Source: a virus (taxonomy: Duplodnaviria > Caudoviricetes). Taken from it: a DNA stretch of 64,000 nt. The notes below the pieces were generated by a model, which had not been told where the DNA came from, did not search any database, and saw nothing but the letters and a program-made list of their open reading frames with translations. Positions 10,432 to 59,957 of this stretch are shown here, one piece after another (within the stretch, counting starts at the first letter, position 1; the number at the start of each line of letters is the position of its first letter). The stretch lies in IMG/VR virus record IMGVR_UViG_2907408351_000001, positions 2,863 through 66,862 of that record; one strand, given 5' to 3'. Made by a program: the position numbers and the translations under genes.

Positions 10432-10502
10432 AAAATCGGCCTCTTTTCCGATACTTTAATCTTCGTTACATTCTTCCTTGCGTGATTTCGCAAGTTTAAA
10501 GA

Positions 10503-11507
10503 ATGGAAGAAAATCTAAGAAACAAGATTTTTATAGGGGATGCTTTAGAGCGTCTTCGAACATTCCCATCTGATTATTTCCATACAGTAATAAGCTCCCC
10601 GCCGTATTTTCGTCTTAGGGACTACGGACATCCCGGTCAAATTGGACTTGAAGATGCTCCAAAGGATTATATAAAACGAATCGTTGAGGTATTTCGGGAA
10701 GTCAGAAGAGTGATGCACCCGGAAGGGACGGCCTGGGTAAACATAGGAGACTCATATAATACCGGAGAAAGAAAAGAAAAAGAAAAAAAGAGGGAGGTTT
10801 CTAAACATAAGTCCTTACTTCAAACTGCTACGCGTGTCTGCGGCCTGAAAAAGAAAGATCTAATCGGTATTCCTTGGAAAGTGGCCTTTGCCTTACAAGA
10901 AGACGGATGGATTTTGAGACAGGATATTATTTGGAGTAAGCCAAATCCTATGCCTTCGGCTGTAAAAGATAGGTGTACTACTTCCCACGAGTATATCTTT
11001 CTATTAACTAAAAGTCCAAAATACTATTACGATTCCGATGCAATTTCAGAACCGGCGGTGAGCCTCATGCCGGGCCATCCGAGTTTTAGACCTCATTTGT
11101 TAGAAAGTTCAAATCAAACAAGGACAGAATCGCAGAGCAAAAGAGGTAAAACTTTTCAGGTCATAAAAGAAAAAAGAAACAAAAGGTCTGTTTGGACCGT
11201 GCCGACAGCGCCTTCGAAAACCTCACATACGGCGACTTTTCCCCGGGAATTAATCTCACTTTGTATTCAGGCAGGAACCAGTAAAATTGGAGCTTGTAGA
11301 ATTTGCGGGATGCAATATAGAAAAAAAATGGTCTCGGAATGTGATCATCCGTATGATCCGGTGCCTCCAAGGGTCTTTGATCCTTTTTTTGGATCAGGGA
11401 CTACAGGAGTTGTCTCTTTAGATTTGGGTTGTGAATATACGGGAATCGAAATTGTTCCTAAGTTTGCAGAAGAAGCAGAACGTCGAATCGGACTCAGGCT
11501 CTTCTAA
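10503..11507 (+). CDS. beta-class N4/N6 DNA methyltransferase
   Basis: SSPPY, DIIWSKPNPMP, FDPFFGSGTT. Confidence 0.93.
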   Translation: MEENLRNKIFIGDALERLRTFPSDYFHTVISSPPYFRLRDYGHPGQIGLEDAPKDYIKRIVEVFREVRRVMHPEGTAWVNIGDSYNTGERKEKEKKREVSKHKSLLQTATRVCGLKKKDLIGIPWKVAFALQEDGWILRQDIIWSKPNPMPSAVKDRCTTSHEYIFLLTKSPKYYYDSDAISEPAVSLMPGHPSFRPHLLESSNQTRTESQSKRGKTFQVIKEKRNKRSVWTVPTAPSKTSHTATFPRELISLCIQAGTSKIGACRICGMQYRKKMVSECDHPYDPVPPRVFDPFFGSGTTGVVSLDLGCEYTGIEIVPKFAEEAERRIGLRLF

Positions 11508-11580
11508 GTTATTTAATTGAGGTTTTGGAAGGAAAAATGACTTTACTAAACTTTATCCTTAAACAAAAAATATAGTCCGT

Positions 11581-12327
11581 ATGAAAATAGACTACTCAGA
11601 CTCTTTTAGAATCAATCAATCCGACCTAATAAAACATCCTAACTTAGTATCTCGAGATATTCCCAAAGAGGAAGAAGACGCATTTAATGAGAAAATTAAA
11701 AATATCGGAGTAACTGAAGCCGTAATCGTCGTTAAACACCCAACTCAAAATGGGAAATATTGGCTCTTAAACGGAGATCGTCGATCAAGAGGAAATAAAA
11801 AAGCTAAACACCCAACGATTTTGGCTAAAATGGTTGTTTCTGAGCTAACAGAAGAGGTCCGCCAGTATGTAATGTACTCAGTCAATAATGACGGTACTCC
11901 GATGGGCGATGAAGATACCGTAAAAGCAATCATCAAAGAGTTTGGAAAAGAGAGAATACTCAAAGAGTTTCGAGGAAATATTTCACCGGAAGAAAGAAAG
12001 AAGTTAGGGCCTCCTTTGTCCGAAGTGATTACAAAGACTTTTGGTAGATCTTTAAGGACGAATCAAAGATACCTAAAAGAAGCAAAAGCAATTCTTTCCG
12101 GAAATGAACCTACTCCGATTCAGCTCAAAGATCTTGATAAAAAGAAACTTACGACGATTCACAAGATTGTAAAACAAGTCCAAAGTATCGACACTCAAAC
12201 TAAAAAACTGCTAATCGAAAAAAGTAAATTGGCAAAACAGCTAAAGCCATTTGGGGGGTTAAGGCGCGCAATAGAACTTGATTTAGAAAATCAAAAAAAG
12301 CAAAAGAAACTAAAAACAAAAAAGTAG
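11581..12327 (+). CDS. ParB/Srx N-terminal domain protein
   Basis: IKHPNL..IKNIGVTEAVIV..WLLNGDRRSR. Confidence 0.7.
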   Translation: MKIDYSDSFRINQSDLIKHPNLVSRDIPKEEEDAFNEKIKNIGVTEAVIVVKHPTQNGKYWLLNGDRRSRGNKKAKHPTILAKMVVSELTEEVRQYVMYSVNNDGTPMGDEDTVKAIIKEFGKERILKEFRGNISPEERKKLGPPLSEVITKTFGRSLRTNQRYLKEAKAILSGNEPTPIQLKDLDKKKLTTIHKIVKQVQSIDTQTKKLLIEKSKLAKQLKPFGGLRRAIELDLENQKKQKKLKTKK

Positions 12328-12402
12328 ACAGTCCTTAATTTTTTCTAAAATGATTCGCTTCTCGAATGGACTCTTTCGGGGTAAAAAAGTTACGCATAGG
12401 GT

Positions 12403-13314
12403 GTGAAAAGCTCTGTCAAACTAAACCTAAATTTAAACGCGGGACGTGAAGACTCGCCTTCCATCTCACAAATTCCCTTGGATGGAATCCGATTCCATCC
12501 AAGAAACTCAGACCTTTTTAAAACAAAGTCTGAATCATACATTAAAAATCTTTCAAAAGACATTTCAAAGTTCGGTTTACACGAGCCGATATCCGTACGC
12601 TATATTGAGGATGAAAACATTTATCTTTGTTTGTCCGGGGAAAACAGGGTAAAAGCCGTTAAACTTCTTGGATGGACGACTATTTCAGGATACGTTGTTT
12701 CTCCAAAGAACGAACTCTCCTTTATGATTTCTCGAAATGTAAGGAGACGTCATTTCGGGCATCGAGATAGAATTCTAATTTTGCAAGTATATTGTCCTGA
12801 CTTTTTTACTGGGTCAAAAATAACAATTCGTAGACTCGAAACGATTTCAGATGAAACGGGAATCCCTACATCGACTCTGAAAGCTGATTTAAAAAAGATA
12901 CGAACTGGAAGTAGTAAAGAGGTCACACTAGAAGAACTAAGGAGTCTTTGGGAGAAAAAAAAGATACGCGGCCTAAGAGTGAGTATCTCAGACCTTTCGG
13001 ACGGAAATTTTCTACTTCAGGTGAACGGAAAAAATCTCAATTATGAATGGAAAGGCAAATTTAAAGACGTGATTCGAGATTCTGCCGAAGCGGCACGGTC
13101 AAAGTCATTTAATAAGAATTTTAAATTTGAGAATTCAGAATTAGCCTCACGAATTCGGGAACTGCGTAAGGATGCACGTATGACTCAGTTTGAGCTCGCG
13201 CAATTACTTGGATATTCTCAATCCTATATCGCGGAACTAGAGGGCGGTAAGTGGGAATGTTCGATTTCCCTGTTCGAAGAAATCGCGATACTTTGTGAGG
13301 AAAGAATAAAATGA
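12403..13314 (+). CDS. ParB N-terminal domain plus C-terminal XRE HTH protein
   Basis: HPRN..GLHEPISV..LSGENRVKA..NVRRRH; IRELRKDARMTQFELAQLLGYSQSYIAELEGG. Confidence 0.85.
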   Translation: MKSSVKLNLNLNAGREDSPSISQIPLDGIRFHPRNSDLFKTKSESYIKNLSKDISKFGLHEPISVRYIEDENIYLCLSGENRVKAVKLLGWTTISGYVVSPKNELSFMISRNVRRRHFGHRDRILILQVYCPDFFTGSKITIRRLETISDETGIPTSTLKADLKKIRTGSSKEVTLEELRSLWEKKKIRGLRVSISDLSDGNFLLQVNGKNLNYEWKGKFKDVIRDSAEAARSKSFNKNFKFENSELASRIRELRKDARMTQFELAQLLGYSQSYIAELEGGKWECSISLFEEIAILCEERIK

Positions 13315-14276: not shown

Positions 14277-14330
14277 AAGAGTGCTTCAATTCGTGATTAT
14301 GATAAAACCTATTCTGTTATAGTACTACCA

Positions 14331-14966
14331 ATGGTAGCCAAAAAGAAAGTGATCACCCGAAGAAAATCAATGGGTGAGAAGGAGAAAGCTTTATCAACTC
14401 GCGCACCTACTAAAGAAAAACTTTCCAAAAAAGACCAACAAAAGATTCGATTTGCTTACTTACGGGGTTCTTCCAGAGAAGAGATTTGTCGAAAGTATAA
14501 AATCGATTACAAACAACTCGACAATCTGATTCACAGAAACGGTTGGAAGGATGATTTTGAGGAAATAGAAGGAAAAGTGAGGGAAAAAACGGCACTTTCC
14601 ATTATTTCAAACGCATCAACAACTCTTGCCCGTATGAATACCGAGGCGACCGAACTTCTCGATCTTATCAAAAAACGAATCTATGATCCTGAGATTTCCA
14701 ACGAGGATCTTTCTTACCTAATCAAATCGAGAAATACTCTACTTCGGGAACTTCTCCGATCCTTGGGTTTACCTGATACTATCCGAAACGAATCCGGATC
14801 TCCGGACGAAAAAAGCCAATTCAATCTTCAAATCATCACCGGAGTAGGAGAACTACCCGGATCGATCGAGAAGCTCATTGGCGGGAAAGCCATAGGTGTC
14901 GGCAAGGAAGAAACTTCTCACATTAGATCCAAGAAAAGTCAAAACGGAGACGATCCAAAGAAGTAA
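14331..14966 (+). CDS. terS: terminase small subunit (putative)
   Basis: HTH-like N-terminal region and helical body directly upstream of terL. Confidence 0.6.
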   Translation: MVAKKKVITRRKSMGEKEKALSTRAPTKEKLSKKDQQKIRFAYLRGSSREEICRKYKIDYKQLDNLIHRNGWKDDFEEIEGKVREKTALSIISNASTTLARMNTEATELLDLIKKRIYDPEISNEDLSYLIKSRNTLLRELLRSLGLPDTIRNESGSPDEKSQFNLQIITGVGELPGSIEKLIGGKAIGVGKEETSHIRSKKSQNGDDPKK

Positions 14967-17843: not shown

Positions 17844-18025
17844 GCTATATTTTGAGCATTTCTTCCAAGCGGACTGAAATAGGATCGAAATTGATTAAAG
17901 CCTGTTTGGAAGAATTAAATTCATCTTAAAATTAGAAAAAATCATTAAAATCAGATCGATTCTTTTCCCGATACATCGCGGGAGCACGTAGAATTTGGAA
18001 AAATTCAAAATAAGGAATCGATTCC

Positions 18026-18559
18026 ATGTCTACAAATGAAGCTGTCGAAAACGAAATTCCCGAAAGTCTGATTGAAAGTAAAGAAGAGATAAACCTTTCA
18101 GAAGACGAAACCCCTTCGGAAAATGTTTCTGCAATTCTTCCGCCGGAAATTCATCCCATATCCGAGGAACTTGAACGAACTGAAATAAAACAAGCCGATA
18201 AGGCAGAAGACGAGGACGTGATTCTTGCAAATTTGGTCCTTGAATTGAGTGAGACAGATCGGCAAAACCTCTTTGACAGTCTTTACTCTTCGGTAGTCAA
18301 TCAGCAATCCCGAGACACCGTTCTCCATATACTTTTTTGGAAAGGATTTCGGTTACTGAACGCATCCGGTTTGATTTCAGGAACGCCTGAGAGCGAAACG
18401 GAATTCGCCGAGAAAGTTGGTAAGTTATCGTCTCAGGACAGACAAGTTCTCTACGATAGCGTTTGTTCCTCAATTGAAAATCAAAGAGGAAGAGATACCG
18501 TGCTTCACGTCCTATTCTGGAAGGCTTGTAAGCTCATCAGGGAAGCTGGGATCGAATAA
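18026..18559 (+). CDS. acidic protein with an internal ~40-aa duplication
   Basis: LSETDRQNLFDS..RDTVLHILFWK and LSSQDRQVLYDS..RDTVLHVLFWK. Confidence 0.75.
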   Translation: MSTNEAVENEIPESLIESKEEINLSEDETPSENVSAILPPEIHPISEELERTEIKQADKAEDEDVILANLVLELSETDRQNLFDSLYSSVVNQQSRDTVLHILFWKGFRLLNASGLISGTPESETEFAEKVGKLSSQDRQVLYDSVCSSIENQRGRDTVLHVLFWKACKLIREAGIE

Positions 18560-25404: not shown

Positions 25405-25409
25405 TTTCT

Positions 25410-27746: not shown

Positions 27747-28943
27747 CTAAGACGGCTCCACACGAGTCACGGTCCCTGAAGTGATTCCTCCGGAAGATCC
27801 TCCGGTTCTTGGAAGATCAATGGAAGGAACGGAAATATCACTTGGAGTGGGAAGTGGGAAAGGAACTGGATCGGATGCGAGTTTCCCATAAAACTCGATT
27901 ATGCTTACTTTGTAAAAGTCCGGATGCGCTTTTAGAATTGTTCCTTCTACTTGTTTTAGTAAAACATCAAATCCTACGGGTAAGGTGTTTAAGTAAAGGG
28001 TGAGTTGATTCTTCGCTATATCTAAGGCTTGTTCGTTCGAAAGTTGGGATCCGTTTTGAATTTGAAGATCGAATTTAACTGTAATTCCGAGAACTGGAAT
28101 TCTAAATACTGCAACAAAGGTACCTGCGGCCGCAAATCCAGGAAAGTTTTCAGGATCGTTTAAATCTCCTTCAATGGTCTTTTGAACAAGATTAAGAAGG
28201 CTCTCTGGAGGATTTGATGTACCATCTGAGATATACAGATTGATCCAACCGATTTCAAAAGCACCGGAATACGGATTCACGTTAGTCGTTAATTGAATTC
28301 CTGCAACACCTGGGATAGAAGTTGCGGCGGTATAGATCCCAAGAGGAGTAGAGCGACCTAGAGAAACGATAAAGTTACGAAAACGACGAAGCCTATTTTC
28401 TTCGCTTTCAATGTTTGTTCCACCTGCGAAATCACTCGGATTCCAGATCCTTGTATTCGGTGGAACTTGAACATTTAAAGTACCAAGACCTTCTTGGGTA
28501 TCAATGGAAAGCCTCGTTATGTTATAATCTTTTCCGGGGTTCTTTGCTCTGATTTCGATTTCAACGGAAGTTTCACCAACGGGAAGCGTAACGGGTGCGA
28601 TTGACTCATAAAGAAGACCAAAGAGATCGAGTGTAAAGACTGGGATCGTTACGGGAGTTGTGTGACCCGAATGTTCGATTCGAAGAACTCCGATTGATTT
28701 TAGGCCGGGTAACCTCGTAAAACCAAAGGCGTTATAGACCCCTTCTCTGATTGAGTATTCAAATCCGTTAAGAGTTCTTAAATCTCCCTCTGCAAGAACG
28801 GAAGCAATCGTCGCTATCCAGGTTGAGATCCTGGATCCGGGACTAAAGTTTGAAAGTCTAGAACCGCTAGCAAGTAAGCTATTTTGTTGAGCTGTCTTGT
28901 ATTCGAGTGCCGTTTTTGGAATGTAAGGAGCGGGAGAACCCAT
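27747..28943 (-). CDS. baseplate J/gp47-like protein
   Basis: NFSPGS, FGFTR, GGTNIESEENRLRRF..SLGRST. Confidence 0.88.
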   Translation of the reverse strand: MGSPAPYIPKTALEYKTAQQNSLLASGSRLSNFSPGSRISTWIATIASVLAEGDLRTLNGFEYSIREGVYNAFGFTRLPGLKSIGVLRIEHSGHTTPVTIPVFTLDLFGLLYESIAPVTLPVGETSVEIEIRAKNPGKDYNITRLSIDTQEGLGTLNVQVPPNTRIWNPSDFAGGTNIESEENRLRRFRNFIVSLGRSTPLGIYTAATSIPGVAGIQLTTNVNPYSGAFEIGWINLYISDGTSNPPESLLNLVQKTIEGDLNDPENFPGFAAAGTFVAVFRIPVLGITVKFDLQIQNGSQLSNEQALDIAKNQLTLYLNTLPVGFDVLLKQVEGTILKAHPDFYKVSIIEFYGKLASDPVPFPLPTPSDISVPSIDLPRTGGSSGGITSGTVTRVEPS

Positions 28944-29012
28944 TCCTGAAAACGTAACTCGAATTCAAAAATCGGAAATCCGATAGGCTGAAAGATTCTA
29001 TTATCTCAATCG
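28944..29012. promoter_or_regulatory. back-to-back divergent CCGAT-N14-TAnnnT late promoters
   Basis: ATCGGaaatCCGAT at 28971-28984; TACGTT 7 nt before ATG 28943 (-) and TATTAT 8 nt before ATG 29013 (+). Confidence 0.7.
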
Positions 29013-30962
29013 ATGGGAGTGATAGATTCGATTTCTGGCTTTGGCGGGAGCGTTGTAGACGGTGCGAAATCAGCGTTTAATTCAGTTACAGGAGGATCAT
29101 TTTCCGGAAGTTTAGCTCCAACTTACCAACCGCAGAACGTATTCTCTCTTTCCTTCTATGAAAAGAAAAACAACGGTTCCTACAATCTGGCCGGTGCAAA
29201 CGTTGATTCGAATGAATACTTTTTTGTAAATGGTCCGCTCCAATACACAGAGAATTTTAAATACCGCGTCGGAATTGAAAAAACTTTTGGTGGAGTTGTG
29301 GTTGTTGATTATGGACCCGATAATCATGAAATAAAATTAGAAGGTGAATTCCATATCTACCATTTAGGTTTACCTGCAAAGCCGAAGTCTGCAATTCCGG
29401 GTGATACAGGCGCAGGTTTTATCCAATCCGCGTTCTCGGCCGCAAAGAGCATTGTTTCAAATTCTGTAAGTAGCTACTATGATAAAATCAGAAGTAGTTA
29501 TCTAAGTTTTGGAGGAGGGGAATTTAGGTCGGGACTCCAAGAATTCCAGGATTTTATGTTTATCCTTCACTATTCGAGAAGTCTTGATCCGGTCCAATAT
29601 ACCTCTAACGATCCTCAAGGATCTAAGATTGCAAAACTTTTCAGAGAAAGACGTCTCACTTGGAAGAGTCACGCAATGGTTTTTCGGGACTATGACAGAA
29701 ACCGAACCGTAGAGGTAGTCATTCCGTCCAGTGGTTTTGCGATAACTCGTTCCGTATCTGACACGAATACTTACAAATATTCTTTGAATCTGGTTGTTGT
29801 ACGCGAACTTGATTCTTCCATAACGAGCCAACTCATACGAAGTAACTTTAATCCGTTTCGAACCATTTCAGGACTCATGAATGAATTAGAAAATATCATA
29901 AATCTTCCCTTGCAGTTATCAGGTGCGCTTCTTGGAGTCGCGAGAGGGGTTCAAGTATTTGCTAGTTCTACTAAGAGACTTCTTTCCTCCTGGGATCGAA
30001 TGAAGGACCAATTCAATGCTCAAGGGAAATTAGCGAGAAAAACTTTTGAGAGTGCTAAAGCTGATCTTGGAATCAAATCAAAGAAACGGGGATTTAATGC
30101 GGAAGAAATCTCGCAGAGAATTGACGATGCTTATCGAAAATCGAGATCGAACGAGGCAGATTTTAGACAAAATTTAGAAAAAGCCTCCTCGGATTGTAGT
30201 GCCTTAATTTTACTTATTGCTCAATTTACGATTCCGGTTCAAACGGGGGGATCGTATGAATCTATGTCTCTCCTACCGAACGCCGATTTGAGTGCTTGGA
30301 TTGATAACGACGTTTACCAGTTTGCTTTGACTGCAAATCAGATTCTTTTAGAAACTCAAAGCGCAATTAACGAAGCGGCTGTTGATAATGAATATTCCAT
30401 TCATTATGTGTCGTCTGGGGATACCTGGGAGTCGATTGCAGAAAAAAAATTAGGGGATGTGAATTTAGGACAAGCACTAGCGCTGTATAACGGACAACAT
30501 GAGACTACCATTCTTGCAAGACGCGCAATTAAAATCCCTTACGGAACTAAAACAAATGTTTTTACGGTTTTGCCGGACAATCCAACTCCAAAGGATTTAG
30601 AAATCGGTCTTTTAGGCTGTGATATAAAACTCACTGAAAACCGAGGGATTGCGATTTCGCCAACTGGCGATTTGGAAATTGTGGAGGGTGATGAGGCTCT
30701 CGTAAATGAAAAGCTGGATCATATTGATATAGTGATCGGATCGATTCCGGGAAGTCCGGATATTGGGAATCCGATTGCTTGGGGAGAAACCCCGGATGAG
30801 ATTTACAGTAAGGGATATATTAAGGAATTATTACGACAATTCAAGTCCGATCCAAGAGTAAATGACGCTCGTTTTCTTGGAGTGATTCAAGACGGGGATA
30901 AGATTCTATTTCGCTTTTATTTGGAATCGATTTCAGGCGGGAGTAATATCATTTCGATATGA
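29013..30962 (+). CDS. baseplate protein with LysM and C-terminal gp25-like region
   Basis: HYVSSGDTWESIAEKKLGD..LALYN (LysM); GCDIKL..GDLEIVEG..DPRV. Confidence 0.7.
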   Translation: MGVIDSISGFGGSVVDGAKSAFNSVTGGSFSGSLAPTYQPQNVFSLSFYEKKNNGSYNLAGANVDSNEYFFVNGPLQYTENFKYRVGIEKTFGGVVVVDYGPDNHEIKLEGEFHIYHLGLPAKPKSAIPGDTGAGFIQSAFSAAKSIVSNSVSSYYDKIRSSYLSFGGGEFRSGLQEFQDFMFILHYSRSLDPVQYTSNDPQGSKIAKLFRERRLTWKSHAMVFRDYDRNRTVEVVIPSSGFAITRSVSDTNTYKYSLNLVVVRELDSSITSQLIRSNFNPFRTISGLMNELENIINLPLQLSGALLGVARGVQVFASSTKRLLSSWDRMKDQFNAQGKLARKTFESAKADLGIKSKKRGFNAEEISQRIDDAYRKSRSNEADFRQNLEKASSDCSALILLIAQFTIPVQTGGSYESMSLLPNADLSAWIDNDVYQFALTANQILLETQSAINEAAVDNEYSIHYVSSGDTWESIAEKKLGDVNLGQALALYNGQHETTILARRAIKIPYGTKTNVFTVLPDNPTPKDLEIGLLGCDIKLTENRGIAISPTGDLEIVEGDEALVNEKLDHIDIVIGSIPGSPDIGNPIAWGETPDEIYSKGYIKELLRQFKSDPRVNDARFLGVIQDGDKILFRFYLESISGGSNIISI

Positions 30963-31678
30963 GAGGGTCATTTTCGAACGATCCTTTTGATTGGCAGGAA
31001 AAACCGCAGTCCCCGGATGCGAGATTGACTCCTGTGATGATCGCGACCGTTACTGAAGTTCTTCCCCGTTTCCGCGCAAATGTTCTGACAACTTTTGGGG
31101 AACCATTTCAAAAGGTCAGGTATTTTGGACCTTTTTTAAAACAAGGAGGCGATGCTCACGGTCGAGCGTTTGGTCTTAAAAAAGATCAACTTGTATTACT
31201 TGAGTTTATAGGAGGTTCTTTTCGCGCTCCTCTCATTACTCAAGTTTTTCCATTTTCAACAAAGGATTCCGATTTATCAAACATTCAAGACTTCTGGAAT
31301 AAATTTTCTTTTATCGACCCGGAGACCGACATCATTGATTTTCACGAGTCAGGCTACGCGGTTCGTCAAACGACGAATAAAATTGAGGTATATAACGAAT
31401 CGCAAGAAGTCGTTTTGAAACTTGATTTTACAGTCAAAAAAGCAACCCTCACGTTTGAAAATGTTGAGATAAATTCTAAAGTTCAAATAAACGGCGATAC
31501 GAAAATCGTAGGGAAAACGACCTTCGAGGGAGATTTGGACATCACCGGAAAAATTGAAGCAACAGAAAAAATCATATCCGATGTCGATGTAATCGCGGCG
31601 GGAACTTCTTTAAAAGAACACGACCATCTTTATAACCCAGGACCATTGCCCCCCACAAAGACAAGTCCTCCGATATGA
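30959..31678 (+). CDS. baseplate central spike (gpV-like)
   Basis: OB-fold N-terminus, beta-helix repeats, terminal SLKEHDH. Confidence 0.8.
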   Translation: MRGSFSNDPFDWQEKPQSPDARLTPVMIATVTEVLPRFRANVLTTFGEPFQKVRYFGPFLKQGGDAHGRAFGLKKDQLVLLEFIGGSFRAPLITQVFPFSTKDSDLSNIQDFWNKFSFIDPETDIIDFHESGYAVRQTTNKIEVYNESQEVVLKLDFTVKKATLTFENVEINSKVQINGDTKIVGKTTFEGDLDITGKIEATEKIISDVDVIAAGTSLKEHDHLYNPGPLPPTKTSPPI

Positions 31679-31701
31679 CCTAATCCTTTAAAATTTGCTT
31701 T

Positions 31702-37546: not shown

Positions 37547-37791
37547 CATTAAATAGACTAATTACACAAGCGATTTTCTTTATTAATTTTTCACTTTTTT
37601 TCATTATAATAATCGGTTTTTTATAATAAAAACATTATTCATCTTTTGCTTGTTCTGAGCGTTCTACATTAAAAATTTGCAAGATTCTTTAATCAAACAT
37701 TTGATATTCTAATCTAAGATAATTTCAAAGATAGAGTCAGTAATCGAATCTACCCACTTCCGATTTTTAATTTTCAAATACAAGGGTCTCT

Positions 37792-38679
37792 ATGTCAGAG
37801 ACTCAATTTCTTCATCCATTCCAAATAATGAAAGCCACTCCGGAGGATCGGACTGGCGCAATCAAGATTCTTGTCAAAGCGTCTTCGGAACGAGAAGACA
37901 GACAAGGGGAAGTCATCCTTAAATCTGCTTACGCGGATCCTTCGATGCGTTCGGAGTTTACTTCCCAAGGATACTTCGACTTTAACCATCTAACCGATCA
38001 TATCGATAAAGAGATTCGAGATCTAAAAAACGAGGGGAAGCTAACCGGATCTCTCCTCGTCGATTTACAAAAATCAAAAGCGGAAGCGATCATCGGCGCC
38101 CCTGAACAAATCGGGTTAAAAGAAGATTTTCCGACTCACTACGGAATCAAAGACGACGGACTATATATCCTAGGGAGACTTTTTCCAGGAAACAAATTCG
38201 CAGAGGAAATTCGAAAAGGGTTACAAGCCGGGTTCCAAGGTTGGGGAGCTTCCGTTTCCGGATTCGCCCGACCACAAGACTATCAAGGAAAGACGATTCG
38301 CAAAATTCTTCTTCGTAAATGCGCGATCGCTCCACTCCAAGAAGTAATCAATCCAGATACCTCGGTTCAATTGATAAAGGGTGCGATTTTTCTTCGAGAT
38401 ATCGAGAAGAGTATTTTAGACGGATCTGACGAATTAGAACGCCTCTTACGAATCGAACGTAAACTCAACTTCTTAACAAAACTCTTTCAATCGGATCCCG
38501 AAGCGCAAGACCGCTTTGTCGAACTCATCATCTCCGATATTTCAGATCGTGTTAGAAATCAGGGAATGGAACTTCGGTCCGCCCTGATTCGCTCGGTTCT
38601 CCAGACAGAATACAGCATCGAAGGCGAGGATTTAGAAAATCTCACCGACGCGATATTCCTAAAACTGAGTGGAGAATAA
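37792..38679 (+). CDS. prohead protease (putative)
   Basis: ASSEREDRQGEVI, FDFNH, GASVSG, AIAP..INPDT; upstream of scaffold and capsid. Confidence 0.75.
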   Translation: MSETQFLHPFQIMKATPEDRTGAIKILVKASSEREDRQGEVILKSAYADPSMRSEFTSQGYFDFNHLTDHIDKEIRDLKNEGKLTGSLLVDLQKSKAEAIIGAPEQIGLKEDFPTHYGIKDDGLYILGRLFPGNKFAEEIRKGLQAGFQGWGASVSGFARPQDYQGKTIRKILLRKCAIAPLQEVINPDTSVQLIKGAIFLRDIEKSILDGSDELERLLRIERKLNFLTKLFQSDPEAQDRFVELIISDISDRVRNQGMELRSALIRSVLQTEYSIEGEDLENLTDAIFLKLSGE

Positions 38680-40987: not shown

Positions 40988-41731
40988 ATGAACTACGAAC
41001 AACTCTTTGAACAAGGAAAATTTCCAAAAACCAGATTCGTTCTAAATCGAATCGCAAAAGCGACTCAAGAGGCGTGGACGAACAATACACTCGCCGCAAA
41101 ACCTAGCTGGTGGGGAAGAATGGCAATGTCCAATCGTCCCGGAGGAGGGGGAGGAATTTTAATACGTCCTATTCCGGGAGGATTTCAAGTATATCATCCG
41201 AATAAGGGAAAGTATAATTACATGGCGGTCATCGAACGAGGTAGAGGACGTTACGATATGCGTCCCTCACTTCTTGGTGGAAGTCGAGCGAGAATGGGTG
41301 AGAACGGTCCTTATGTAATCGTTCCGATAACTAAAAATGAAAATGGAACTCGTGTTAGTCCAAAAAACAATTCAATCAATTCTGTGATCATTAAAACCGG
41401 AACTTTCAAAGAGGAGAATGCTCACGGACAAATGGTAACAAGAAACCGTTACAAATACAGGCAAGATCCTGGCATGACTGGTAAAGGAAACGTATTTGCA
41501 AGAGAACAAAAGTACAAAAATGGAACCGTTCAAAGATCCTTCGTAAAATTCGTCGTTGTTACCGAAAAAAGTCGCGACTTCTTTCAACCGGCGATTCCAG
41601 CTCAAAAAATTCTAGCAGGAATCAAAGAGGATGTGAAATCAGCGTTAAAATCTAAAACTCTAAAGCAAGCAGTCGCTTTAGATGCCAAAAATCTGATTTT
41701 AGACTTACTCAGTAAAAAAAAGAACCGATAA
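40988..41731 (+). CDS. basic neck/tail-completion protein (putative)
   Basis: IERG..YDMRPSLL..G.NGPYVIVP motif; position. Confidence 0.55.
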   Translation: MNYEQLFEQGKFPKTRFVLNRIAKATQEAWTNNTLAAKPSWWGRMAMSNRPGGGGGILIRPIPGGFQVYHPNKGKYNYMAVIERGRGRYDMRPSLLGGSRARMGENGPYVIVPITKNENGTRVSPKNNSINSVIIKTGTFKEENAHGQMVTRNRYKYRQDPGMTGKGNVFAREQKYKNGTVQRSFVKFVVVTEKSRDFFQPAIPAQKILAGIKEDVKSALKSKTLKQAVALDAKNLILDLLSKKKNR

Positions 41732-41757
41732 TCCGTTTCCGTTTAAGATCCGGATGA

Positions 41758-42534
41758 ATGGATATAAGTCTTCGGGAAGAAGAAGCTAGACAACAAGACG
41801 GACGCGATCGGGGGGCTATCCTAATCACGTATCCAGCTCCTCCGGAAGATACGGTTGTAGAATATTTTCGTAATTCCTTACCACTCACAGGCCTTGCACT
41901 ACGAAACATTGATGTTCCTATCGAACACGGTCATCCGCTCTATCAAGAAGGAGTTTCGACGACTGGACCGAATACAAAATTTCCAAAGATTGGAATCGAA
42001 TGCACAACGGATCGAAATACTCAATTTTTAGGATTAAACGAACATCACTTTAAGAATTCAGAATCTTTCCGAAAATATTTAACTAAGATTTCAGAACTAC
42101 CTGAAAGCCAACGCCTTCCGACAAAGGCTTTCTTAGATGAATTTAGTCGAAAGAAAAATTTCCAACAACTTCAATACACCGTTGAATCAGAGGTAGTCAT
42201 TTGCGGGTTCGCGACAGGTAACGCCGGTCGAAACACAAATAAATGGATCTATGACGCCGCTCTTGCCGTGACAATGCTCATGGCTAATGATCTTCCCGTC
42301 CTTTATCCAGGACTAACTGTTTTTCTTCCCGAAGACACAGAACCTAATTTAAGCACCGCCGATTTCTCTGAACCTTTCTGGGGGTTTGAAATCAGAGTAA
42401 AACTCATTCAAACAAAATCAATTTTTCGAACCAAACCTTCATTCCTTTTTCCCGATATTAGCTCCTTCGATGTATTTTTATCGGGAAGCAAAACCCGACT
42501 GGAAGGCAACTTCGGGTTAGAGGATAATCCTTAA
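41758..42534 (+). CDS. tail terminator-like protein (putative)
   Basis: FPKIGI motif; upstream of the sheath gene. Confidence 0.45.
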   Translation: MDISLREEEARQQDGRDRGAILITYPAPPEDTVVEYFRNSLPLTGLALRNIDVPIEHGHPLYQEGVSTTGPNTKFPKIGIECTTDRNTQFLGLNEHHFKNSESFRKYLTKISELPESQRLPTKAFLDEFSRKKNFQQLQYTVESEVVICGFATGNAGRNTNKWIYDAALAVTMLMANDLPVLYPGLTVFLPEDTEPNLSTADFSEPFWGFEIRVKLIQTKSIFRTKPSFLFPDISSFDVFLSGSKTRLEGNFGLEDNP

Positions 42535-47614: not shown

Positions 47615-47898
47615 AAATATATCCCAAAGTCGGGCTTTGTGCGCTTTATGTCAAATTAATTGTCTTTAAAAAGTAGCCATATTTTTTTTGTTTCAAATAC
47701 GAAAAAATAATCACTGACCTATCTATCGATTTCTCAGCGAATTTGATAGGGCCTATTTCATATTGCTTTATAATTTGATTGGCTCTTGTTTAGATTTTAT
47801 TTTTGTTTAAGCAATATGAACTCATAATTCTAATCCGTTCACTTTTTGCGGATCAAAGTAATCTTCTCCGATATCGAACTAACTTAGATGATTGATGA

Positions 47899-48546
47899 AT
47901 GAGAATTCTGGAACCTAATAAGAGAGTTACTTTAAATGCAAAATACGAAAGCGACTCTTACAAATTCGAAGCGGAAATTGCTGACCCTAGTACGGAACTT
48001 GACATTGAAATTGCGGTTGCAAAAAGACTAAACGGCGCATCGCTTGAATCGATTCCAAATACGACCTACGGATATATCTACGCAATCGCTACTTTAAATC
48101 ACGTCATCAAAGAAATCCCTGAAGATTTTCCGATTCCAGACATCCAGACCTTTGAACAGATAAGAGACAAAGAGTTTGTCATCAGACTCTTTAAAGAATA
48201 TGAGAAAAAGGAAAACTGGTTTAAATCAGAGTTAAAAAAAAATCGGGACGCTCGACGCACTGAACGACGAAGAGAATCTTCTCGACCTCTTTCTAATGAA
48301 CCAGATGAAAATACTTCCGAGAGGAGTCACGCATCTGGGAAATCTATTTCTCGAACAAAAGAGATTCATCCTCGAAGCAACAGCAAGACTGGACATTCCG
48401 AATCTTCTCATGAGAGCGAAACTGAAGTCTCAGAAACGCCAAGTAATGAAGATGAAATCGATGGAATTCCTAGAGAATATAAGCCCGACAATGGCCAGTA
48501 TCCTGGAGGCAGAGGCCGGGTATTCACAAGACATGCTCATGAGTGA
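47899..48546 (+). CDS. tail assembly chaperone
   Basis: Between tube and tape measure; A9 run at 48234-48242. Confidence 0.7.
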   Translation: MRILEPNKRVTLNAKYESDSYKFEAEIADPSTELDIEIAVAKRLNGASLESIPNTTYGYIYAIATLNHVIKEIPEDFPIPDIQTFEQIRDKEFVIRLFKEYEKKENWFKSELKKNRDARRTERRRESSRPLSNEPDENTSERSHASGKSISRTKEIHPRSNSKTGHSESSHESETEVSETPSNEDEIDGIPREYKPDNGQYPGGRGRVFTRHAHE

Positions 48547-50309: not shown

Positions 50310-50352
50310 CAATTCTAAATTCCGATTTTTCATTCCAATGCAAACTACCGGA

Positions 50353-50742
50353 ATGGAAATACACCGTATTCTTTTTCAATTATTCAATCGAACCGGCGTT
50401 GCGATCGAAAGAGAGGTTGAAGAATTCGCTCAAGAGTTTCAAGTTCAACAACCTCAAAAACTTACCAAAGCCTTTAAACAATCAGACAATTTGGTAACCA
50501 TCCCCATTCCAACTGGGATTCAGTTTAAATATGTTCTGATTCTTGGAACTTATCTCGCAGACGACACAGCAATTGGAGTTAAAAAAGACGACCCCGCACC
50601 GATTGTAGTCCGTATTAATGAATCTGCAACCGATCATCCTTTACCTCAAGGATTTATGGCATGGTCTGGAGGTCTTACTTCTTTGAGAGTTGCGACAACT
50701 TATGATACGAATCAAGTCTTAGTAGAAGTTTACTTGGGATAA
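50353..50742 (+). CDS. virion protein (hypothetical)
   Basis: Start moved to MEIHR because the late promoter motif ends 6 nt upstream. Confidence 0.65.
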   Translation: MEIHRILFQLFNRTGVAIEREVEEFAQEFQVQQPQKLTKAFKQSDNLVTIPIPTGIQFKYVLILGTYLADDTAIGVKKDDPAPIVVRINESATDHPLPQGFMAWSGGLTSLRVATTYDTNQVLVEVYLG

Positions 50743-54733: not shown

Positions 54734-56359
54734 TTAAAATACTAGATCCTTGTCCGGTTCAAATTCTTCTTCCTCGTCGAGACGAAATTTCGAATCTTCG
54801 GGATTATCGCCCTGTTCGCCGTTTTCTTCATATCCCATTTCAGAATAATCCTGTCCTTGCATTGCACCCATTGCATTTTGTTGGATTTGCATCATATTTT
54901 GTTGAAAAATTGGATTTAAAATAAGAGCTCCGGCCATTTTGTAATCTTCGACTGGAACGCCGTAAAGGTCTGCGAGAGTTTCCCCGATTGTCGGGTTATC
55001 TTGTGCAATTCGAATTTCGTCCACAAGTTTCCAGTTTGAAACTTCATCTTTTTGTTTTTGAACTTTATCTTTTTCGTCTTCCGGATCTTTTCCACTAAAT
55101 TCACAAACAATTCCGCCGAAATCATCCTCACGGAAGTTTTTGAGTTTTGTAAAAGCAGATTCGAAGTAGGTAAGTAAACTGAGTTTTGCGCGAGTCATAC
55201 TATGTTTACTTTTTTCAGTTTGATTGGCTTCTGATAATGATTGAGAGCCGATGAGTCGAAGTCCCAACTCTGCTTGGTCCATTCCATGCCCCATAAGGAC
55301 GAGTGAAACACACCACTGCATTAAATCTTTAAATACCATTTCATTTGGAATATTGAGTGGGGTCCATTTTACTTCTCCCGCAGAAGTTCCGAGGATCGGG
55401 ATTCGATGAGAATCATCAAGACCAGAGATCATCTCTTGCCATTGAAGTTGAAGAGAATCTAACGCCTCTTGGCTAATATCACCTTGGAACGAAAGATAAC
55501 CGTAAGGATGTTGTCTTGAAAATGTATCTCGATTAAATTTGAGTGAATTGATGACTCCGACAAGATCGAGCATACACGCTTCCAAAGGAGAGAATCCAAA
55601 TCCCCTCATGGATACATCAGAAAGATGATTTTTGTGGAGCCAAAGGATTTCGTTTGCCCCGAACGTTTCGACTACATTGTCATCGATGATTTGGACAAAT
55701 GCAACGGAATGGTCCCCCCTGTATCCTTTTGTGGGATCGACTGGAAATATGGATGCGGGATCCAAATATCTGATTTCTATTAACTTACCGAAGGAATTAA
55801 AAATTAAAAAGAATGCTATTGAATCGATGGTGAGAGTATCTCTCGTCATCATTTCAAAAACGGAACCTAAATGATCGCGGTTTGCCCAACCAGCTGTCAA
55901 ATCACCCATTTTATCAAACCACTTTCCGCATCGTTTCATCCGCACGGTGATTTCATCCGTGACTTCTTCGTCCTCGTCTTCCATTCGAAACCAAAGACCG
56001 GTTTTGGAACTGATCCGCGCAAACTTACTCAAGTCTTCTACGCGAACCGTATGAATTGCCGAGATTAAAGATGTACCGTAGCTAGCACTTCGAAGATGGG
56101 GAATTGGAATTCTCCAAGTTGGTCGCAACTGGATCCCGTCCCTGATTTGTTGCATCTGATCGAAGCTATATACGGGATTTCGACCGGCGACTTCCGGAGT
56201 GTTTACTTGTCCAAACCAGGACTTTGCTAAGTGTAAAAGACGTTCATTGATTTTTTCAGTTTTAAGTCCGACCTCTTTGGAACGTTCTAGTCTTATTCTT
56301 TTTTCTAAATTCTTTTCGTAATCATTTCCACGCGGCCGGCCTTTCCCCTGTTTCACCAT
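54734..56359 (-). CDS. portal protein
   Basis: RDTLTID, LDPASI, GFSPLE, P.GYL, WTPL..EM.F..M motifs of SPO1/Twort-type portals. Confidence 0.88.
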   Translation of the reverse strand: MVKQGKGRPRGNDYEKNLEKRIRLERSKEVGLKTEKINERLLHLAKSWFGQVNTPEVAGRNPVYSFDQMQQIRDGIQLRPTWRIPIPHLRSASYGTSLISAIHTVRVEDLSKFARISSKTGLWFRMEDEDEEVTDEITVRMKRCGKWFDKMGDLTAGWANRDHLGSVFEMMTRDTLTIDSIAFFLIFNSFGKLIEIRYLDPASIFPVDPTKGYRGDHSVAFVQIIDDNVVETFGANEILWLHKNHLSDVSMRGFGFSPLEACMLDLVGVINSLKFNRDTFSRQHPYGYLSFQGDISQEALDSLQLQWQEMISGLDDSHRIPILGTSAGEVKWTPLNIPNEMVFKDLMQWCVSLVLMGHGMDQAELGLRLIGSQSLSEANQTEKSKHSMTRAKLSLLTYFESAFTKLKNFREDDFGGIVCEFSGKDPEDEKDKVQKQKDEVSNWKLVDEIRIAQDNPTIGETLADLYGVPVEDYKMAGALILNPIFQQNMMQIQQNAMGAMQGQDYSEMGYEENGEQGDNPEDSKFRLDEEEEFEPDKDLVF

Positions 56360-56504
56360 GCGGTTGAGATTATGAAAAAAAGGATTATCGGATTATTTTT
56401 TCCGATTTTTTCCGGCGGGAAAAATAGGTTTTGTCGCAAATCGCTATCGGCTAAGAGTACACATATCTTTTTCCGATATTGATTTTCTGATTAATATAAA
56501 GAGC

Positions 56505-56810
56505 ATGAGTCGAAAATCAATCACCCTGCAAGACATAGGGCGTATTCAATACCAGAATCAATTCACCGTTCCAGGTTCAGAAGTCCTAAATGATCCCGGA
56601 AGACTTTACTACATTACCAACATACACGCGATAGGCGGCTGGACAATTTCCGCAAAAGGAAACAACGCTGATCAAAAACTTACGAACTATTCCCGGTCTG
56701 GAACAGGAGACTTTCAATTTTTTCTTCCGCTCTGCGTATCCGAAGCTTCCTTTTCAGGAGTGACCGAGGTTTCTGGTTTTTGGGTGAACGCGTCACCAAT
56801 GTCTCATTGA
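56505..56810 (+). CDS. hypothetical virion protein
   Basis: 101-aa ORF with the late promoter motif. Confidence 0.6.
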   Translation: MSRKSITLQDIGRIQYQNQFTVPGSEVLNDPGRLYYITNIHAIGGWTISAKGNNADQKLTNYSRSGTGDFQFFLPLCVSEASFSGVTEVSGFWVNASPMSH

Positions 56811-56811: not shown

Positions 56812-57273
56812 ATGATTTCAAGTACGAACTTAGTAAAGAAAAAGGTTCTCGTACACGGTAAAGGAGGCGATTACATGGCCTTCCGAAATACGAAAACCGG
56901 AAATGATGTTTTAACTCCAAGAGAAAAGAAAGTTGAATTTGCAAAACATCAAAGAAGTAGAATTCAACATACTTCCGTCCATAGCGAAAAAGAACAAGCT
57001 CTCATAAAAGAAATGACCGCTCGCCACAAGGCTTTTGAAACCGAAGCGCGAGAACAAAGAAAAACGTATGGAGCCGGTCCTAAACTTCCAAAACCCGGTA
57101 TGATAATGCGAGTTTACGCAAAAGGGAAAGCAAATGTCGGAGGGATGCTTGCGAAAGTGAAACAAGTGGCGGAGGACGGTAAAACTGTGATTTGCGAACT
57201 CACCTCCGGAAAAACGTATTCTCTCCCGATCGATCACCTTGAATTCGCAAAGTCGCAGATCTTCTCCGATTAA
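56812..57273 (+). CDS. basic protein sharing a module with the 903-aa protein; SH3/KOW-like C-terminus
   Basis: LVKKKVLVHGKGGDY; terminal FAKS. Confidence 0.7.
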   Translation: MISSTNLVKKKVLVHGKGGDYMAFRNTKTGNDVLTPREKKVEFAKHQRSRIQHTSVHSEKEQALIKEMTARHKAFETEAREQRKTYGAGPKLPKPGMIMRVYAKGKANVGGMLAKVKQVAEDGKTVICELTSGKTYSLPIDHLEFAKSQIFSD

Positions 57274-57356
57274 TACAATCACTCCTATATTTGATGGGTG
57301 AATTTCAAATCAGTAAGCTACTCTAACATTTTAAGAAATCGCAATCGAGAGTTTCG

Positions 57357-58299: not shown

Positions 58300-58857
58300 A
58301 TGGGAGAATTTAATAAATTGTCGGAAGTAGAAGACAAGGATATGCAAAATTACTTGGGACTCATCGGAACGATTGCTATGATTTTAACTCAAATCCTAAG
58401 ATGGGGACTAAAAAAATTCAAAGAAAAAAGAAAACTAAGAAGTTTAAAAAATCTCGAACCGTATCCCGTTACAAGTCCGTATTTTAGATCGATCAGGGAA
58501 GTAACGAGGCTCGATATTTATTTTGATCGAAACCTTACTACAAAGTCTTCGGACACGTTATGCCAAGATCTCATTTCTCTTTATACAAAAGCAAAAGAGA
58601 ACCGTTTAGAATCTATCAAGATTGAATTTGCTCACTATGGCTCGATCAGTTCGGCCGGCAGTTCTGCTTTACAAAAATTCACAGATTACGTTTCCGAATT
58701 TAACGGAATTCGGTTGGTGATAAAGTTTCCGACGGATTCTCCGGACGCTGTAAAATTATATTTAGATTTGCAAAGGCACAGAGCAGGTTTCGATTCCGGA
58801 CGAATCGAATTGTATTTGAACGATTATACAGAATACGTTAAGAATCACGAACTCTAA
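58300..58857 (+). CDS. single-pass membrane protein with STAS-like domain
   Basis: N-terminal TM; IKIEFAHYGSISSAGSSAL..NGIRLVI. Confidence 0.55.
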   Translation: MGEFNKLSEVEDKDMQNYLGLIGTIAMILTQILRWGLKKFKEKRKLRSLKNLEPYPVTSPYFRSIREVTRLDIYFDRNLTTKSSDTLCQDLISLYTKAKENRLESIKIEFAHYGSISSAGSSALQKFTDYVSEFNGIRLVIKFPTDSPDAVKLYLDLQRHRAGFDSGRIELYLNDYTEYVKNHEL

Positions 58858-58896
58858 GATCTTCCCCGATATACATTTCTCGCAAATGATCGAGAA

Positions 58897-59577
58897 ATGG
58901 AATACGAACATTTTATCCCCGCTCTAATCGAAGAAACTAAACACCGCTATCAGTTTTCTCAAGAAAGAAAGAACTGGCCGCAATTAGATTTCGAAAACAA
59001 TCACGTATTAATTGGAGTTCGAGGGATTTCGATTGAAAACAACCAAGTTTTTTTGAACGACGATAGTTTCGATCGATTCAACGACGTTCTTTTCAATATC
59101 CTTCCCGGAGGGAAATCCTGGGGGAGTCGTGTAGTTACGATGGATCCCGGTAAGGTTTCCAAACAAACTCTTCTAAAATACGGAGTTACCGAAGGAGAAG
59201 CGAGAGTAGAGGAGGGTTTGTATTTGGTTAAGATCGGGCTTCATCACGGACATATTGCTTTTAATCAAGCCTCTCAATTTTCTTTCAGACGAGACGCAAA
59301 CGGCGATCATGTTTGGAACAACTTAGATCCTCTCTTCAAAGGTTTTATCGGAATCAATATTCACGCGCAAGGTATGGAGAAGGATTACGTTGGCGTGAGT
59401 TCACTTGGATGTACCGTTACTCGTGCCTATTGGAATCACCCCGAATGGCTATCTCTTATTTCCGTCTTTCAAGGAGCAGAACTAAAAGCGCGTCAAACGG
59501 ACCCGAAATTTCCAGGTTTTTGTTATGCACTATTTAATCAAGATTCAGCGAAGAAAATCTTAGATTCTAATATGTGA
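58897..59577 (+). CDS. endolysin (L,D-transpeptidase-like fold, putative)
   Basis: LIGVRG..FND..RD.N.D..GINIH..SLGC. Confidence 0.7.
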   Translation: MEYEHFIPALIEETKHRYQFSQERKNWPQLDFENNHVLIGVRGISIENNQVFLNDDSFDRFNDVLFNILPGGKSWGSRVVTMDPGKVSKQTLLKYGVTEGEARVEEGLYLVKIGLHHGHIAFNQASQFSFRRDANGDHVWNNLDPLFKGFIGINIHAQGMEKDYVGVSSLGCTVTRAYWNHPEWLSLISVFQGAELKARQTDPKFPGFCYALFNQDSAKKILDSNM

Positions 59578-59618
59578 ACTACCAGTTCCGATTTTTAGGA
59601 TCATGCTACTTTTTATGA

Positions 59619-59957
59619 ATGAATCAACCGCTAAATGCCAAAGAGGTTCTAAACATTCAACCGGACTCGCAAGAAGCTCGTGAATTAGAATCAAAACTCA
59701 AACATTCTATAATAGTAAACAAGAACGTGTTTAGAAGAAGTAACCAATCCTTTTGGCTTGGTCTATTTTTCGTTCTGGTTGGCCTTTATATTCTCTATAC
59801 AACTCCGGAACAAAAAATATCCGAAGGTTATGGGGGGGTCAGTGTTCACGGACTTTTTCTTACTTCCGGAATTGTTCTCATGTCTTGGTTTAAGACCGGT
59901 GAAATTCTAAATGCCGTCGGTGAGTTTATCTCAAAAGCGAGGGGAGGGAATCCATGA
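59619..59957 (+). CDS. holin (putative)
   Basis: 112 aa, two TM segments, after the endolysin. Confidence 0.6.
   Translation: MNQPLNAKEVLNIQPDSQEARELESKLKHSIIVNKNVFRRSNQSFWLGLFFVLVGLYILYTTPEQKISEGYGGVSVHGLFLTSGIVLMSWFKTGEILNAVGEFISKARGGNP

Follow-up and report, generated by a model that had tools for sequence, protein, structure and literature searches.

The DNA analysed here (the window) is a stretch of 64,000 nucleotides (nt) corresponding to bases 2863-66862 of a 66.9-kb IMG/VR virus record that is rated 76% complete. The window encodes terS, terL, baseplate, portal and tail-fibre-like genes and three proteins with DNA methyltransferase domains, together with ParA, ParB, an IstB-like ATPase and a second replication-initiator-like protein. 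Upstream of a series of these genes lies the two-part element that is the subject of this study, i.e., a CCGAT box followed 14-16 nt downstream by a hexamer resembling a -10 promoter element (TAnnnT). A 649-amino acid (aa) protein of the window is 100% identical in a contig of Leptospira adleri and 96% identical in a contig of L. ainlahdjerensis, a plasmid of L. weilii matches 20 kb of the window with 84% DNA identity, and a related locus matches 97 Leptospira plasmid records. The portal protein is 76% identical to that of KF114876, 68% to that of KF114877, 56% to that of KF114879 (a phage of L. broomii) and 34% to that of leptophage LE1, and is distantly similar to portals from Staphylococcus, Bacillus, Listeria and Enterococcus phages. 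Since its virion genes match those of LE1-like leptophages and it also encodes ParA and ParB, the window is, judging from its sequence, an LE1-like Leptospira phage-plasmid (plasmid-prophage).

A preliminary description of this DNA had listed 17 occurrences of the element, all of which we confirmed, with their coordinates, spacings and gaps, by direct reading of the sequence. They are given here as box, spacer, hexamer, gap in nt and start codon, on the plus strand unless indicated. Two of them form a divergent pair. On the minus strand, CCGAT (28975-28971)-N14-TACGTT-7-ATG (start at 28943; 28941..28975) precedes the baseplate J operon (Pfam Baseplate_J, E=3.9e-13), while on the plus strand CCGAT-N14-TATTAT-8-ATG (start at 29013; 28980..29015) precedes the gene of the 649-aa protein, which has a tail-tube-initiator-like region. 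The two units stand back to back (ATCGG-N4-CCGAT) and fill the 69-bp intergenic region exactly (7+6+14+5+4+5+14+6+8). Five units follow downstream: CCGAT-N14-TAAAAT-7-GTG (31702; 31670..31704) ahead of a 522-aa protein, CCGAT-N14-TATTTT-10-ATG (33352; 33317..33354) ahead of an 807-aa protein with methyltransferase domains, CCGAT-N14-TAATTT-6-ATG (35856; 35825..35858) ahead of a 129-aa protein, CCGAT-N14-TACAAG-7-ATG (37792; 37760..37794) ahead of operon 37792-40926, and CCGAT-N14-TAAGAT-8-ATG (41758; 41725..41760) ahead of operon 41758-44984, which encodes a 602-aa protein and a tube-like 143-aa protein. The last gene of operon 37792-40926 is capsid-like (39475-40926), its product being 31% identical over 489 aa to the major head protein region of LE1 gp24. 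CCGAT-N14-GATGAT-6-ATG (47899; 47868..47901) and CCGAT-N14-CAAACT-6-ATG (50353; 50322..50355) precede proteins of 215 and 129 aa, for which PHROG profile matches begin at residue 1 and span residues 1-129 of 129, respectively. A second divergent pair is made up of CCGAT (56391-56387)-N14-TAATCT-7-ATG on the minus strand (56359; 56357..56391), which serves the portal gene, and CCGAT-N14-TAATAT-7-ATG (56505; 56473..56507), which serves a 101-aa protein. Finally, CCGAT-N14-AATGAT-6-ATG (58897; 58866..58899) and CCGAT-N14-TACTTT-6-ATG (59619; 59588..59621) precede proteins of 226 and 112 aa.

The remaining four occurrences are variants. Two are leadered, namely CCGAT-N16-TAGAAT with a 31-nt leader containing AAGGAA ahead of the head-gene operon (ATG 18026; 17968..18028), and CCGAT-N14-TACATT with a 30-nt leader ahead of a DNA methylase gene (ATG 10503; 10448..10505), the first gene of a unit running to terS/terL. 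A third, CCGAT-N15-TATATT (57266..57291), has its next long open reading frame (ORF), encoding a tail-fibre-like protein, at 57357. The weakest member is the degenerate ATGAT-N14-TATAGT-7-ATG ahead of terS (14331; 14299..14333). The proposal that these sites serve head, tail and lysis genes holds in part: they do stand ahead of operons for virion and packaging functions (the portal gene, the capsid operon, baseplate J, the tube/sheath operon and tail-fibre-like genes), but no lysis genes were identified. Additional copies of the box occur at two places. The divergent region between the portal gene and 56505 (56360-56504) contains four CCGAT in alternating orientation (56391-, 56402+, 56446- and 56473+), of which only the outer two face a gene start, and an inverted CCGAT lies at 10435 (-), 8 nt 5' of the 10448 box. 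These extra copies may be additional binding sites.

The element is strongly enriched. Strict CCGAT-N14-TAnnnT matches the window 11 times, against 2.84 +/- 1.80 in 100 dinucleotide shuffles (largest 8), and ten of these matches are listed sites, the eleventh (20007) lying within a gene. The full pattern, CCGAT-N14-16-TAnnnT-N5-10-RTG, gives 12 matches (11 sites) when 0.98 +/- 1.02 are expected by chance (largest 4). The distance to the start codon is also distinctive. When ORFs with 60 aa or more are considered, 23 CCGAT are found in the 60 nt ahead of the first start, 14 of them at a distance of 26-30 nt. For the 59 other pentamers obtained by permutation, the mean at this distance is 0.73, the largest value (10) belonging to the overlapping TCCGA. 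The motif is hence not as frequent at random positions, and the shuffle and permutation counts, which are far below those observed, rule out chance or base composition as its origin.

When 16 window sites are aligned, the informative columns are a T before the box (13/16), CCGAT itself, an A or T after it (16/16) and the fixed positions of the hexamer (T in 11/16, A in 14/16 and T in 14/16), the middle of which is free. Upstream of the hexamer, the column profile consists of CCGAT(A/T) only. The hexamer fits a sigma70-type -10 element, in which A2 and T6 are the most conserved, and it goes with start-proximal boxes: TAnnnT is found at N13-16 after 38/57 of these, versus 66/766 CCGAT in coding sequence (8.6%) and 21/112 other noncoding CCGAT. 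A consensus scan of 25001-45000 detected no TTGACA-like -35 element 16-18 nt 5' of the -10 at any box. Promoters of sigma70 consensus are not enriched in this region (33 versus 37.9 expected), and none of them coincides with a box.

We then compared 15 related viral loci (63-93% protein identity) and the whole records of four relatives. Orthologues were found by tblastn, with the start taken naively as the first ATG, GTG or TTG of the ORF, and rows with no hit, an unaligned N terminus or a position at the edge of a locus are excluded from the denominators. In six box-bearing lineages, 40/54 orthologues of the 13 box genes of the window have a CCG[AT]T box at a distance of 24-32 nt ahead of their start (9/12 in G004, 8/12 in the L. 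interrogans plasmid pLiSL3, 8/12 in the L. broomii phage KF114879, and 5/6 in each of L013, L014 and L018). By contrast, only 3/78 orthologues of 19 non-box genes have one (G004 0/18, pLiSL3 0/17, L. broomii phage 3/16, L013 0/7, L014 0/9, L018 0/11), and all three are CCGTT in the L. broomii phage. The recurrent architecture that had been described is therefore conserved in position at orthologous genes. Since some misses are due to start calls at a TTG further upstream, these counts are lower bounds. LE1 has the box in none of six box-gene orthologues and none of eight non-box orthologues. Among individual genes, and with the same start calling, the box is kept in 6/6 orthologues of the 649-aa protein gene, 6/6 of the first gene of operon 37792-40926 (as CCGTT in the L. 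broomii phage), 4/6 of the baseplate J operon, 3/3 of the portal gene and 4/6 of the 522-aa protein gene, where the spacer has diverged. More generally, orthologues do not share the spacer sequence that separates box from hexamer. At the divergent baseplate junction, box-to-box distances of 4-8 nt are found among relatives, each box thus keeping register with its own gene.

The PGAP annotation of pLiSL3 places a box 26-31 nt before the annotated start in 13 of the 52 genes listed. In this plasmid, CCGAT lies 28 nt before the annotated ATG of the orthologue of the 129-aa gene at 50353, and the box matching that at 57266 lies 34 nt before the annotated ATG. The head-operon promoter is informative in a different way. 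Box-N15/16-TAnnnT followed by a 28-32-nt leader with a Shine-Dalgarno (SD) sequence is also found in G004 (54454), pLiSL3 (6381 and 88452) and the L. broomii phage (16803), so that four lineages share an ATG 49-57 nt away from the box and an AGGAA-type SD before this ATG, with spacers unrelated in sequence. Retention of box and hexamer as a unit away from the start codon favours a bipartite promoter in which the hexamer would be the -10 element.

Next, we considered the start codons. At 45 box sites in six related genomes these are ATG (34) or GTG (11) and never TTG, a count that omits ORFs shorter than 70 aa and three TTG rows (two short antisense ORFs and one with an ATG 3 nt later); TTG starts occur in 9/54 non-box genes of the window. 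As had been noted, most sites have no SD: an SD-like 4-mer at -4 to -12 is present in 1/13 box genes versus 20/54 others (Fisher p = 0.049, on a hand-made gene list). The gap from hexamer to start is 6-9 nt in 28/32 sites, with a mode of 7, so that an ordinary sigma70 start would fall on the start codon itself or precede it by 1-3 nt. Judging from these gaps, the mRNAs of box genes would be leaderless or nearly so. This would suit the host. In L. interrogans, according to the available text of the start-site study, ~440 genes have an untranslated region shorter than 10 nt, and transcription starts on the start codon itself in 184 or 170 genes (at 30 or 37 °C, respectively) (PMC5243855). The -10-to-ATG distance seen here fits this habit of starts on or within 10 nt of the start codon, but here, unlike there, a defined upstream box accompanies the -10 and is confined to phage. 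The same text, which represents the only genome-wide start-site map for Leptospira, presents no promoter motif except that of sigma54 (PMC5243855).

The preliminary description had called for a comparison with the host, and the motif proves to be phage-specific, with the host chromosome at chance level only. CCGAT-N14-15-TAnnnT-N5-9-ATG occurs 31 times in the 4.8-Mb L. adleri genome. Seven of these matches are in two phage contigs, and the remainder approximate what is expected by our own composition estimate (~30-45 chance hits); a backwards control on this genome gave 0, at odds with that estimate, and is not relied on. In 400 kb of host DNA, CCGAT is found 26-30 nt before the first start in 6/508 ORFs of at least 120 aa, versus 10/60 in the window. 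These chance-level counts rule out a general host promoter element. A crude first-start scan of the same 400 kb, in which 194 of the 508 starts were TTG, carried too much noise for a -10 peak at host starts to emerge.

What is observed directly is that the motif exists, is enriched, stands at a fixed position, is specific to the phage and is conserved at orthologous genes; from this we infer that it acts in transcription, where transcription would start and what might read the box. We consider it probable, with appreciable room for doubt, that these units are bipartite promoters specific to the phage, from which the virion (late) genes of this LE1-like Leptospira phage-plasmid are transcribed, starting at or near the start codon. 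The first part would be the asymmetric box CCGAT followed by A or T, and the second a sigma70-type -10 element (TAnnnT) 14-16 nt downstream. With the hexamer at -12 to -7, the box would fall at about -33 to -27, in place of a -35 element, a geometry resembling the MotA-box-like one initially proposed. Transcription would set out from the start codon or from a position up to ~3 nt ahead of it, and such leaderless or near-leaderless mRNAs fit with the missing SD sequences. Host RNA polymerase with its primary sigma factor would read the -10, while a phage-encoded factor, either an activator or a sigma-appropriating pair, would read the box, the best candidate being the product of 12403-13314.

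Several points weigh against bipartite late promoters of this kind. The SD contrast is weak (p = 0.049), gaps of 9-10 nt in 10/32 sites would leave a leader of 2-4 nt rather than none, and GTG, the start codon at 11/45 sites, is a poor leaderless start in Escherichia coli. Four window hexamers (TACAAG, GATGAT, CAAACT and AATGAT) deviate from TAnnnT, with A2 kept in 4/4 and T6 in 3/4, and across the six related genomes TAnnnT is present at N13-16 in only 32/45 sites. Moreover, these 45 sites derive from related genomes and are not independent, and the starts of orthologues were called naively. The sole RNA run found is for L020 (99.5% identical to pLiSL3), of which it contains 5% of the words, and the reads mapped cover few stretches, none with promoters. 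Searches of Pfam, PHROGs, NCBIfam, the Atlas, PDB sequences and folds revealed no factor among the proteins examined. Finally, CCGATA(A/T) equals the core of a sigma28 -10 element.

This last point is the basis of the alternative that survives best, which was already raised in the preliminary description and which we regard as rather unlikely. CCGATA(A/T) would itself be a sigma28-type (FliA-like) -10 read by the host flagellar sigma factor or a similar group-3 sigma, and transcription would start 7-9 nt after the box, producing a 15-20-nt SD-less leader that contains TAnnnT. It is a real rival. The available text on the Treponema denticola flaB2 promoter gives a -10 of CCGATAA, whose CCGATA(A) core is identical to the box, a -35 of TTAA and a start mapped by RLM-RACE (PMC9481697), and L. 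interrogans has one sigma28, as stated in the accessible part of another report (PMC12655853). In addition, a sigma28-type element needs no phage sigma factor, and none was found in the record or five relatives. When the boxes are set against the sigma28 -10 element GCCGATAA, CCGAT is invariant by selection, an A comes next in 33/45, the base after that is A in 12, C in 12, G in 6 and T in 15, and a G precedes CCGAT in 1/45. The match does not extend to the -35, since TAAA/TTAA at N14-17 upstream is not enriched (4/45 boxes versus 38/557 other CCGAT), and at the divergent pair each -35 would fall on the start region of the other promoter. Sigma28 also leaves unexplained the hexamer dominated by A2 and T6 that follows at a fixed spacing of 14-16 nt and is itself followed by the start codon, its retention in the leadered head-operon promoter, and the restriction to ATG and GTG starts. 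The flagellin genes of the host favour neither reading: CCGAT[AT] is missing from the 300 nt upstream of the four flaB genes and of a fifth gene of the flagellin family, and TCGATT is found at 73-80 nt in two of the four flaB.

A less probable explanation, to which we give little weight, is that the box is an operator where a phage repressor or other DNA-binding protein silences late promoters in the plasmid-prophage, the -10 hexamer alone driving transcription. Late genes must indeed stay off in a plasmid-prophage with ParA/ParB, and there are inverted CCGAT extras near some promoters (10435-, 56402+ and 56446-). However, a single asymmetric box of 5-6 bp in constant phase with the -10 is typical of an element contacting polymerase and not of a dimeric operator, it would be unusual for more than 15 late promoters to be repressed separately, and promoters devoid of both a -35 and an extended -10 TG are usually so weak that repression is unnecessary. 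Least probable of all, and to our minds very doubtful, is a processing or ribosome-recruiting signal acting in long late RNAs to create or mark SD-less starts, since, although the box-to-start distance is constant and several boxes are located within the preceding gene or at its end (e.g., 31670 and 41725), the divergent pairs (28975-/28980+ and 56391-/56473+) are where transcripts must originate and have boxes and hexamers as their sole conserved elements, the head operon retains the box-hexamer unit 49-57 nt from its ATG, and the information profile of the hexamer is that of a -10 element.

If the units are bipartite promoters, a protein should read the box. In agreement with the earlier statement that no sigma factor is recognisable, there is no match to Sigma70_r2 (PF04542) in the 66.9-kb record, and none in five relatives, among which are a record with a completeness rating of 100%, pLiSL3 as a complete plasmid, and LE1. 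A phage sigma factor was rejected as the reader: we obtained only weak matches to region-4-like helix-turn-helix (HTH) domains, mainly in large late ParB_N proteins, all below cut-off. The nonstructural proteins common to the window, G004 and pLiSL3 are those encoded at 7520-7873, 7870-9240, 9237-9500 and 12403-13314, the methylase, terS and terL. Among these, only 7870-9240 and 12403-13314 were also detected in the L. broomii phage, and neither was found in LE1. The gene at 12403..13314 (+), situated just 5' of the packaging genes, encodes a 303-aa protein with a ParB_N domain (E=2e-6) and a C-terminal XRE-type HTH (Pfam HTH_31, E=4.1e-9). Its copies are 51% identical in G004, 51% in pLiSL3 and 45% in the L. 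broomii phage, i.e., it is kept in all three whole box-bearing relatives. Because of its domains and its location, 12403-13314 is the best of the three candidates put forward at the outset, a role that we assign by inference only. The other two fared less well. The 10123-10431 protein is unlikely because it is not conserved, neither G004 nor pLiSL3, the L. broomii phage or LE1 having it, and the supposed cold-shock-domain protein (20105-20356) has a mere sub-threshold match to that domain (17.2 bits versus a cut-off of 27) and is encoded within the late head operon. Sequence searches of the Atlas and PDB provided no lead for the small conserved early proteins 7520-7873 and 9237-9500, and Foldseek searches of the PDB with their single-sequence folds (predicted local distance difference test scores of 60.7 and 78.1) returned 0 matches each at E<=0.001. 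NCBIfam searches with ten candidate proteins gave ParB and XRE-HTH domain hits only.

Two observations concern the ParB_N family itself. Four ParB_N-domain proteins are encoded in this one phage (3288-4217, 11581-12327, 12403-13314 and 22030-24741), one of which, a late protein of 903 aa, joins an inorganic-pyrophosphatase-like domain (E=7.8e-56) with ParB_N and a weak sigma-region-4-like HTH. The ParB_N+HTH gene is preceded, both in the window (12340-12402) and in pLiSL3 (~2500-2552), by a block of sequence GGACTCTTT(C/T)GG(G/A)TA(A/G)AAAAA, which may be a different ("middle") promoter or an operator.

How does the element compare with known systems? T4 middle promoters have a phage-specific box centred near -30 that replaces the -35 while a sigma70-type -10 is kept, according to the available text (PMC7403470). 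The geometry here is alike if the hexamer is the -10, with a box at ~-33 to -27 and a spacer of 14-16. The box sequence differs, and MotCF (PF09158) and AsiA (PF09010) match nothing at E<=1 in four records (the record of the window, G004, pLiSL3 and the L. broomii phage). The T4 MotA box is TGCTT-like, and T4 middle transcripts are not known to be systematically leaderless. Since both box and proteins differ, the element is not a member of the MotA/AsiA system. Phage P1, which is also a phage-plasmid, has late promoters that join a -10 with a conserved upstream element read by the phage activator Lpa, and the late promoters of SPO1 use gp33/gp34 and have CGTTAGA as their -35. The latter resembles a variant box of the L. 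broomii phage, CCGTTAGA, but the spacing between box and -10 is shorter here than in SPO1. No search by name was made for the P1 and SPO1 regulators, and no sigma-like protein was found in the record of the window or five relatives. The L. broomii phage has, beside its CCGATA boxes, a second box type, AACCGTTAGA, located 26-30 nt before starts in the same N14-hexamer-N6-8 layout, 5' of CDS 1355, 8070, 17037 and 9213. This box type likewise resembles the late -35 of SPO1.

LE1 (Saintgironsvirus LE1, NC_048892), although of the same family (portal 34%), has a different motif of its own, TTGAcw-N17-(C/A)(C/T)TTGTC(a/c)CTTCC(c), which abuts the ATG with no SD. There are eight clear sites (5218, 8167, 13099, 28571, 32716, 43502 and 48011 on the plus strand, and 47990 on the minus strand), and 14 hits to the pattern versus a mean of 2.4 in block shuffles. 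The motif occupies orthologous places, being found ahead of the portal, large methylase and ParB_N genes and at the divergent baseplate junction, but its specificity element appears to lie at -14 to -1 and not near -30. Its layout consists of a canonical TTGACA-like -35, N17, a hexamer nnTTGT, ~8 nt and the ATG. A canonical -35 at canonical spacing from a hexamer that lies 8 nt before the ATG independently suggests that late genes are leaderless in the LE1-like phage family. When viral contigs were scanned for the LE1-type box, the outcome was mostly single matches, probably due to chance. One 79.6-kb IMG/VR contig (loci L082, L131 and L139) contains at least four exact LE1-type boxes, CTTGTCnCTTCCnATG, and is probably another LE1-type phage.

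A broader interpretation, which we put forward tentatively, is that LE1-like leptophages run their whole virion programme from leaderless transcripts via lineage-specific boxes, each read by an unrecognised phage factor that would redirect host polymerase without a sigma70-family protein. Under this conjecture, phages whose hosts belong to the pathogenic clade would use CCGATA as their box, the L. broomii phage would use CCGTTAGA in addition to CCGATA, and LE1 would use TTGAC...CCTTGTCACTTCCC. The factors might then include a ParB-fold/HTH protein or some small protein outside the known families, and box and factor would possibly have coevolved or been swapped between lineages. The claim that the architecture is undescribed stands for the literature on Leptospira prophage promoters, leptophage LE1 and Leptospira start-site maps, which contained no account of the motif and did not include the LE1 genome paper. 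In their available text, the LE3/LE4 phage paper mentions neither promoter nor motif, and Fouts 2016 does not mention CCGAT.

Other features of the window and its relatives deserve mention. The G+C content is lower (0.35-0.36 versus ~0.40-0.44 for most of the window) at 16001-18000, 36001-38000 and 60001-64000, stretches that carry genes with no homologues in relatives (16403-17843, a DUF3800 gene at 36561-37457 and a DUF4238 gene at 60512-61408) and are likely accessory insertions without boxes. In pLiSL3, 44000-82000 holds cargo absent from the window, namely a Hachiman defence pair, umuD together with a Y-family polymerase, a protein with RHS repeats and leucine-rich repeat proteins. This plasmid also has a second copy of the early module and a partly duplicated phage module, with boxes at both 6381 and 88452. 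In the window, a strong terminator hairpin of 11 pairs with a T run is found at 40957-40990, 3' of the capsid-like gene, and is immediately followed by the ATG of a conserved 247-aa gene that has neither SD nor box. The same hairpin-then-ATG layout recurs in pLiSL3, the L. broomii phage and LE1, where it stands before gp25 with 11 nt from hairpin to ATG. Lastly, 63140-63180 reads TTGACA-N15-TATATT-N6-GTG ahead of a Gp49-like (DUF891) gene (63177-63575) and has the appearance of a promoter of the host type whose start is leaderless. The comparable sequence TTGACT-N17-TATACT-N8-ATG is found at ~22554 (-) in the L. broomii phage, ahead of the toxin gene of a toxin-antitoxin system.

Leptospira promoters are poorly defined and genetic tools for these bacteria are few. 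A phylogenetically supported unit of ~35 bp, present 13-17 times per phage, would serve as a defined and probably inducible set of promoters for expression tools. It would also give a clean system for leaderless expression in spirochetes and be a handle on a new polymerase-redirecting factor. For the many LE1-like plasmids of pathogenic Leptospira, the box is a simple marker with which gene starts and late operons can be annotated.

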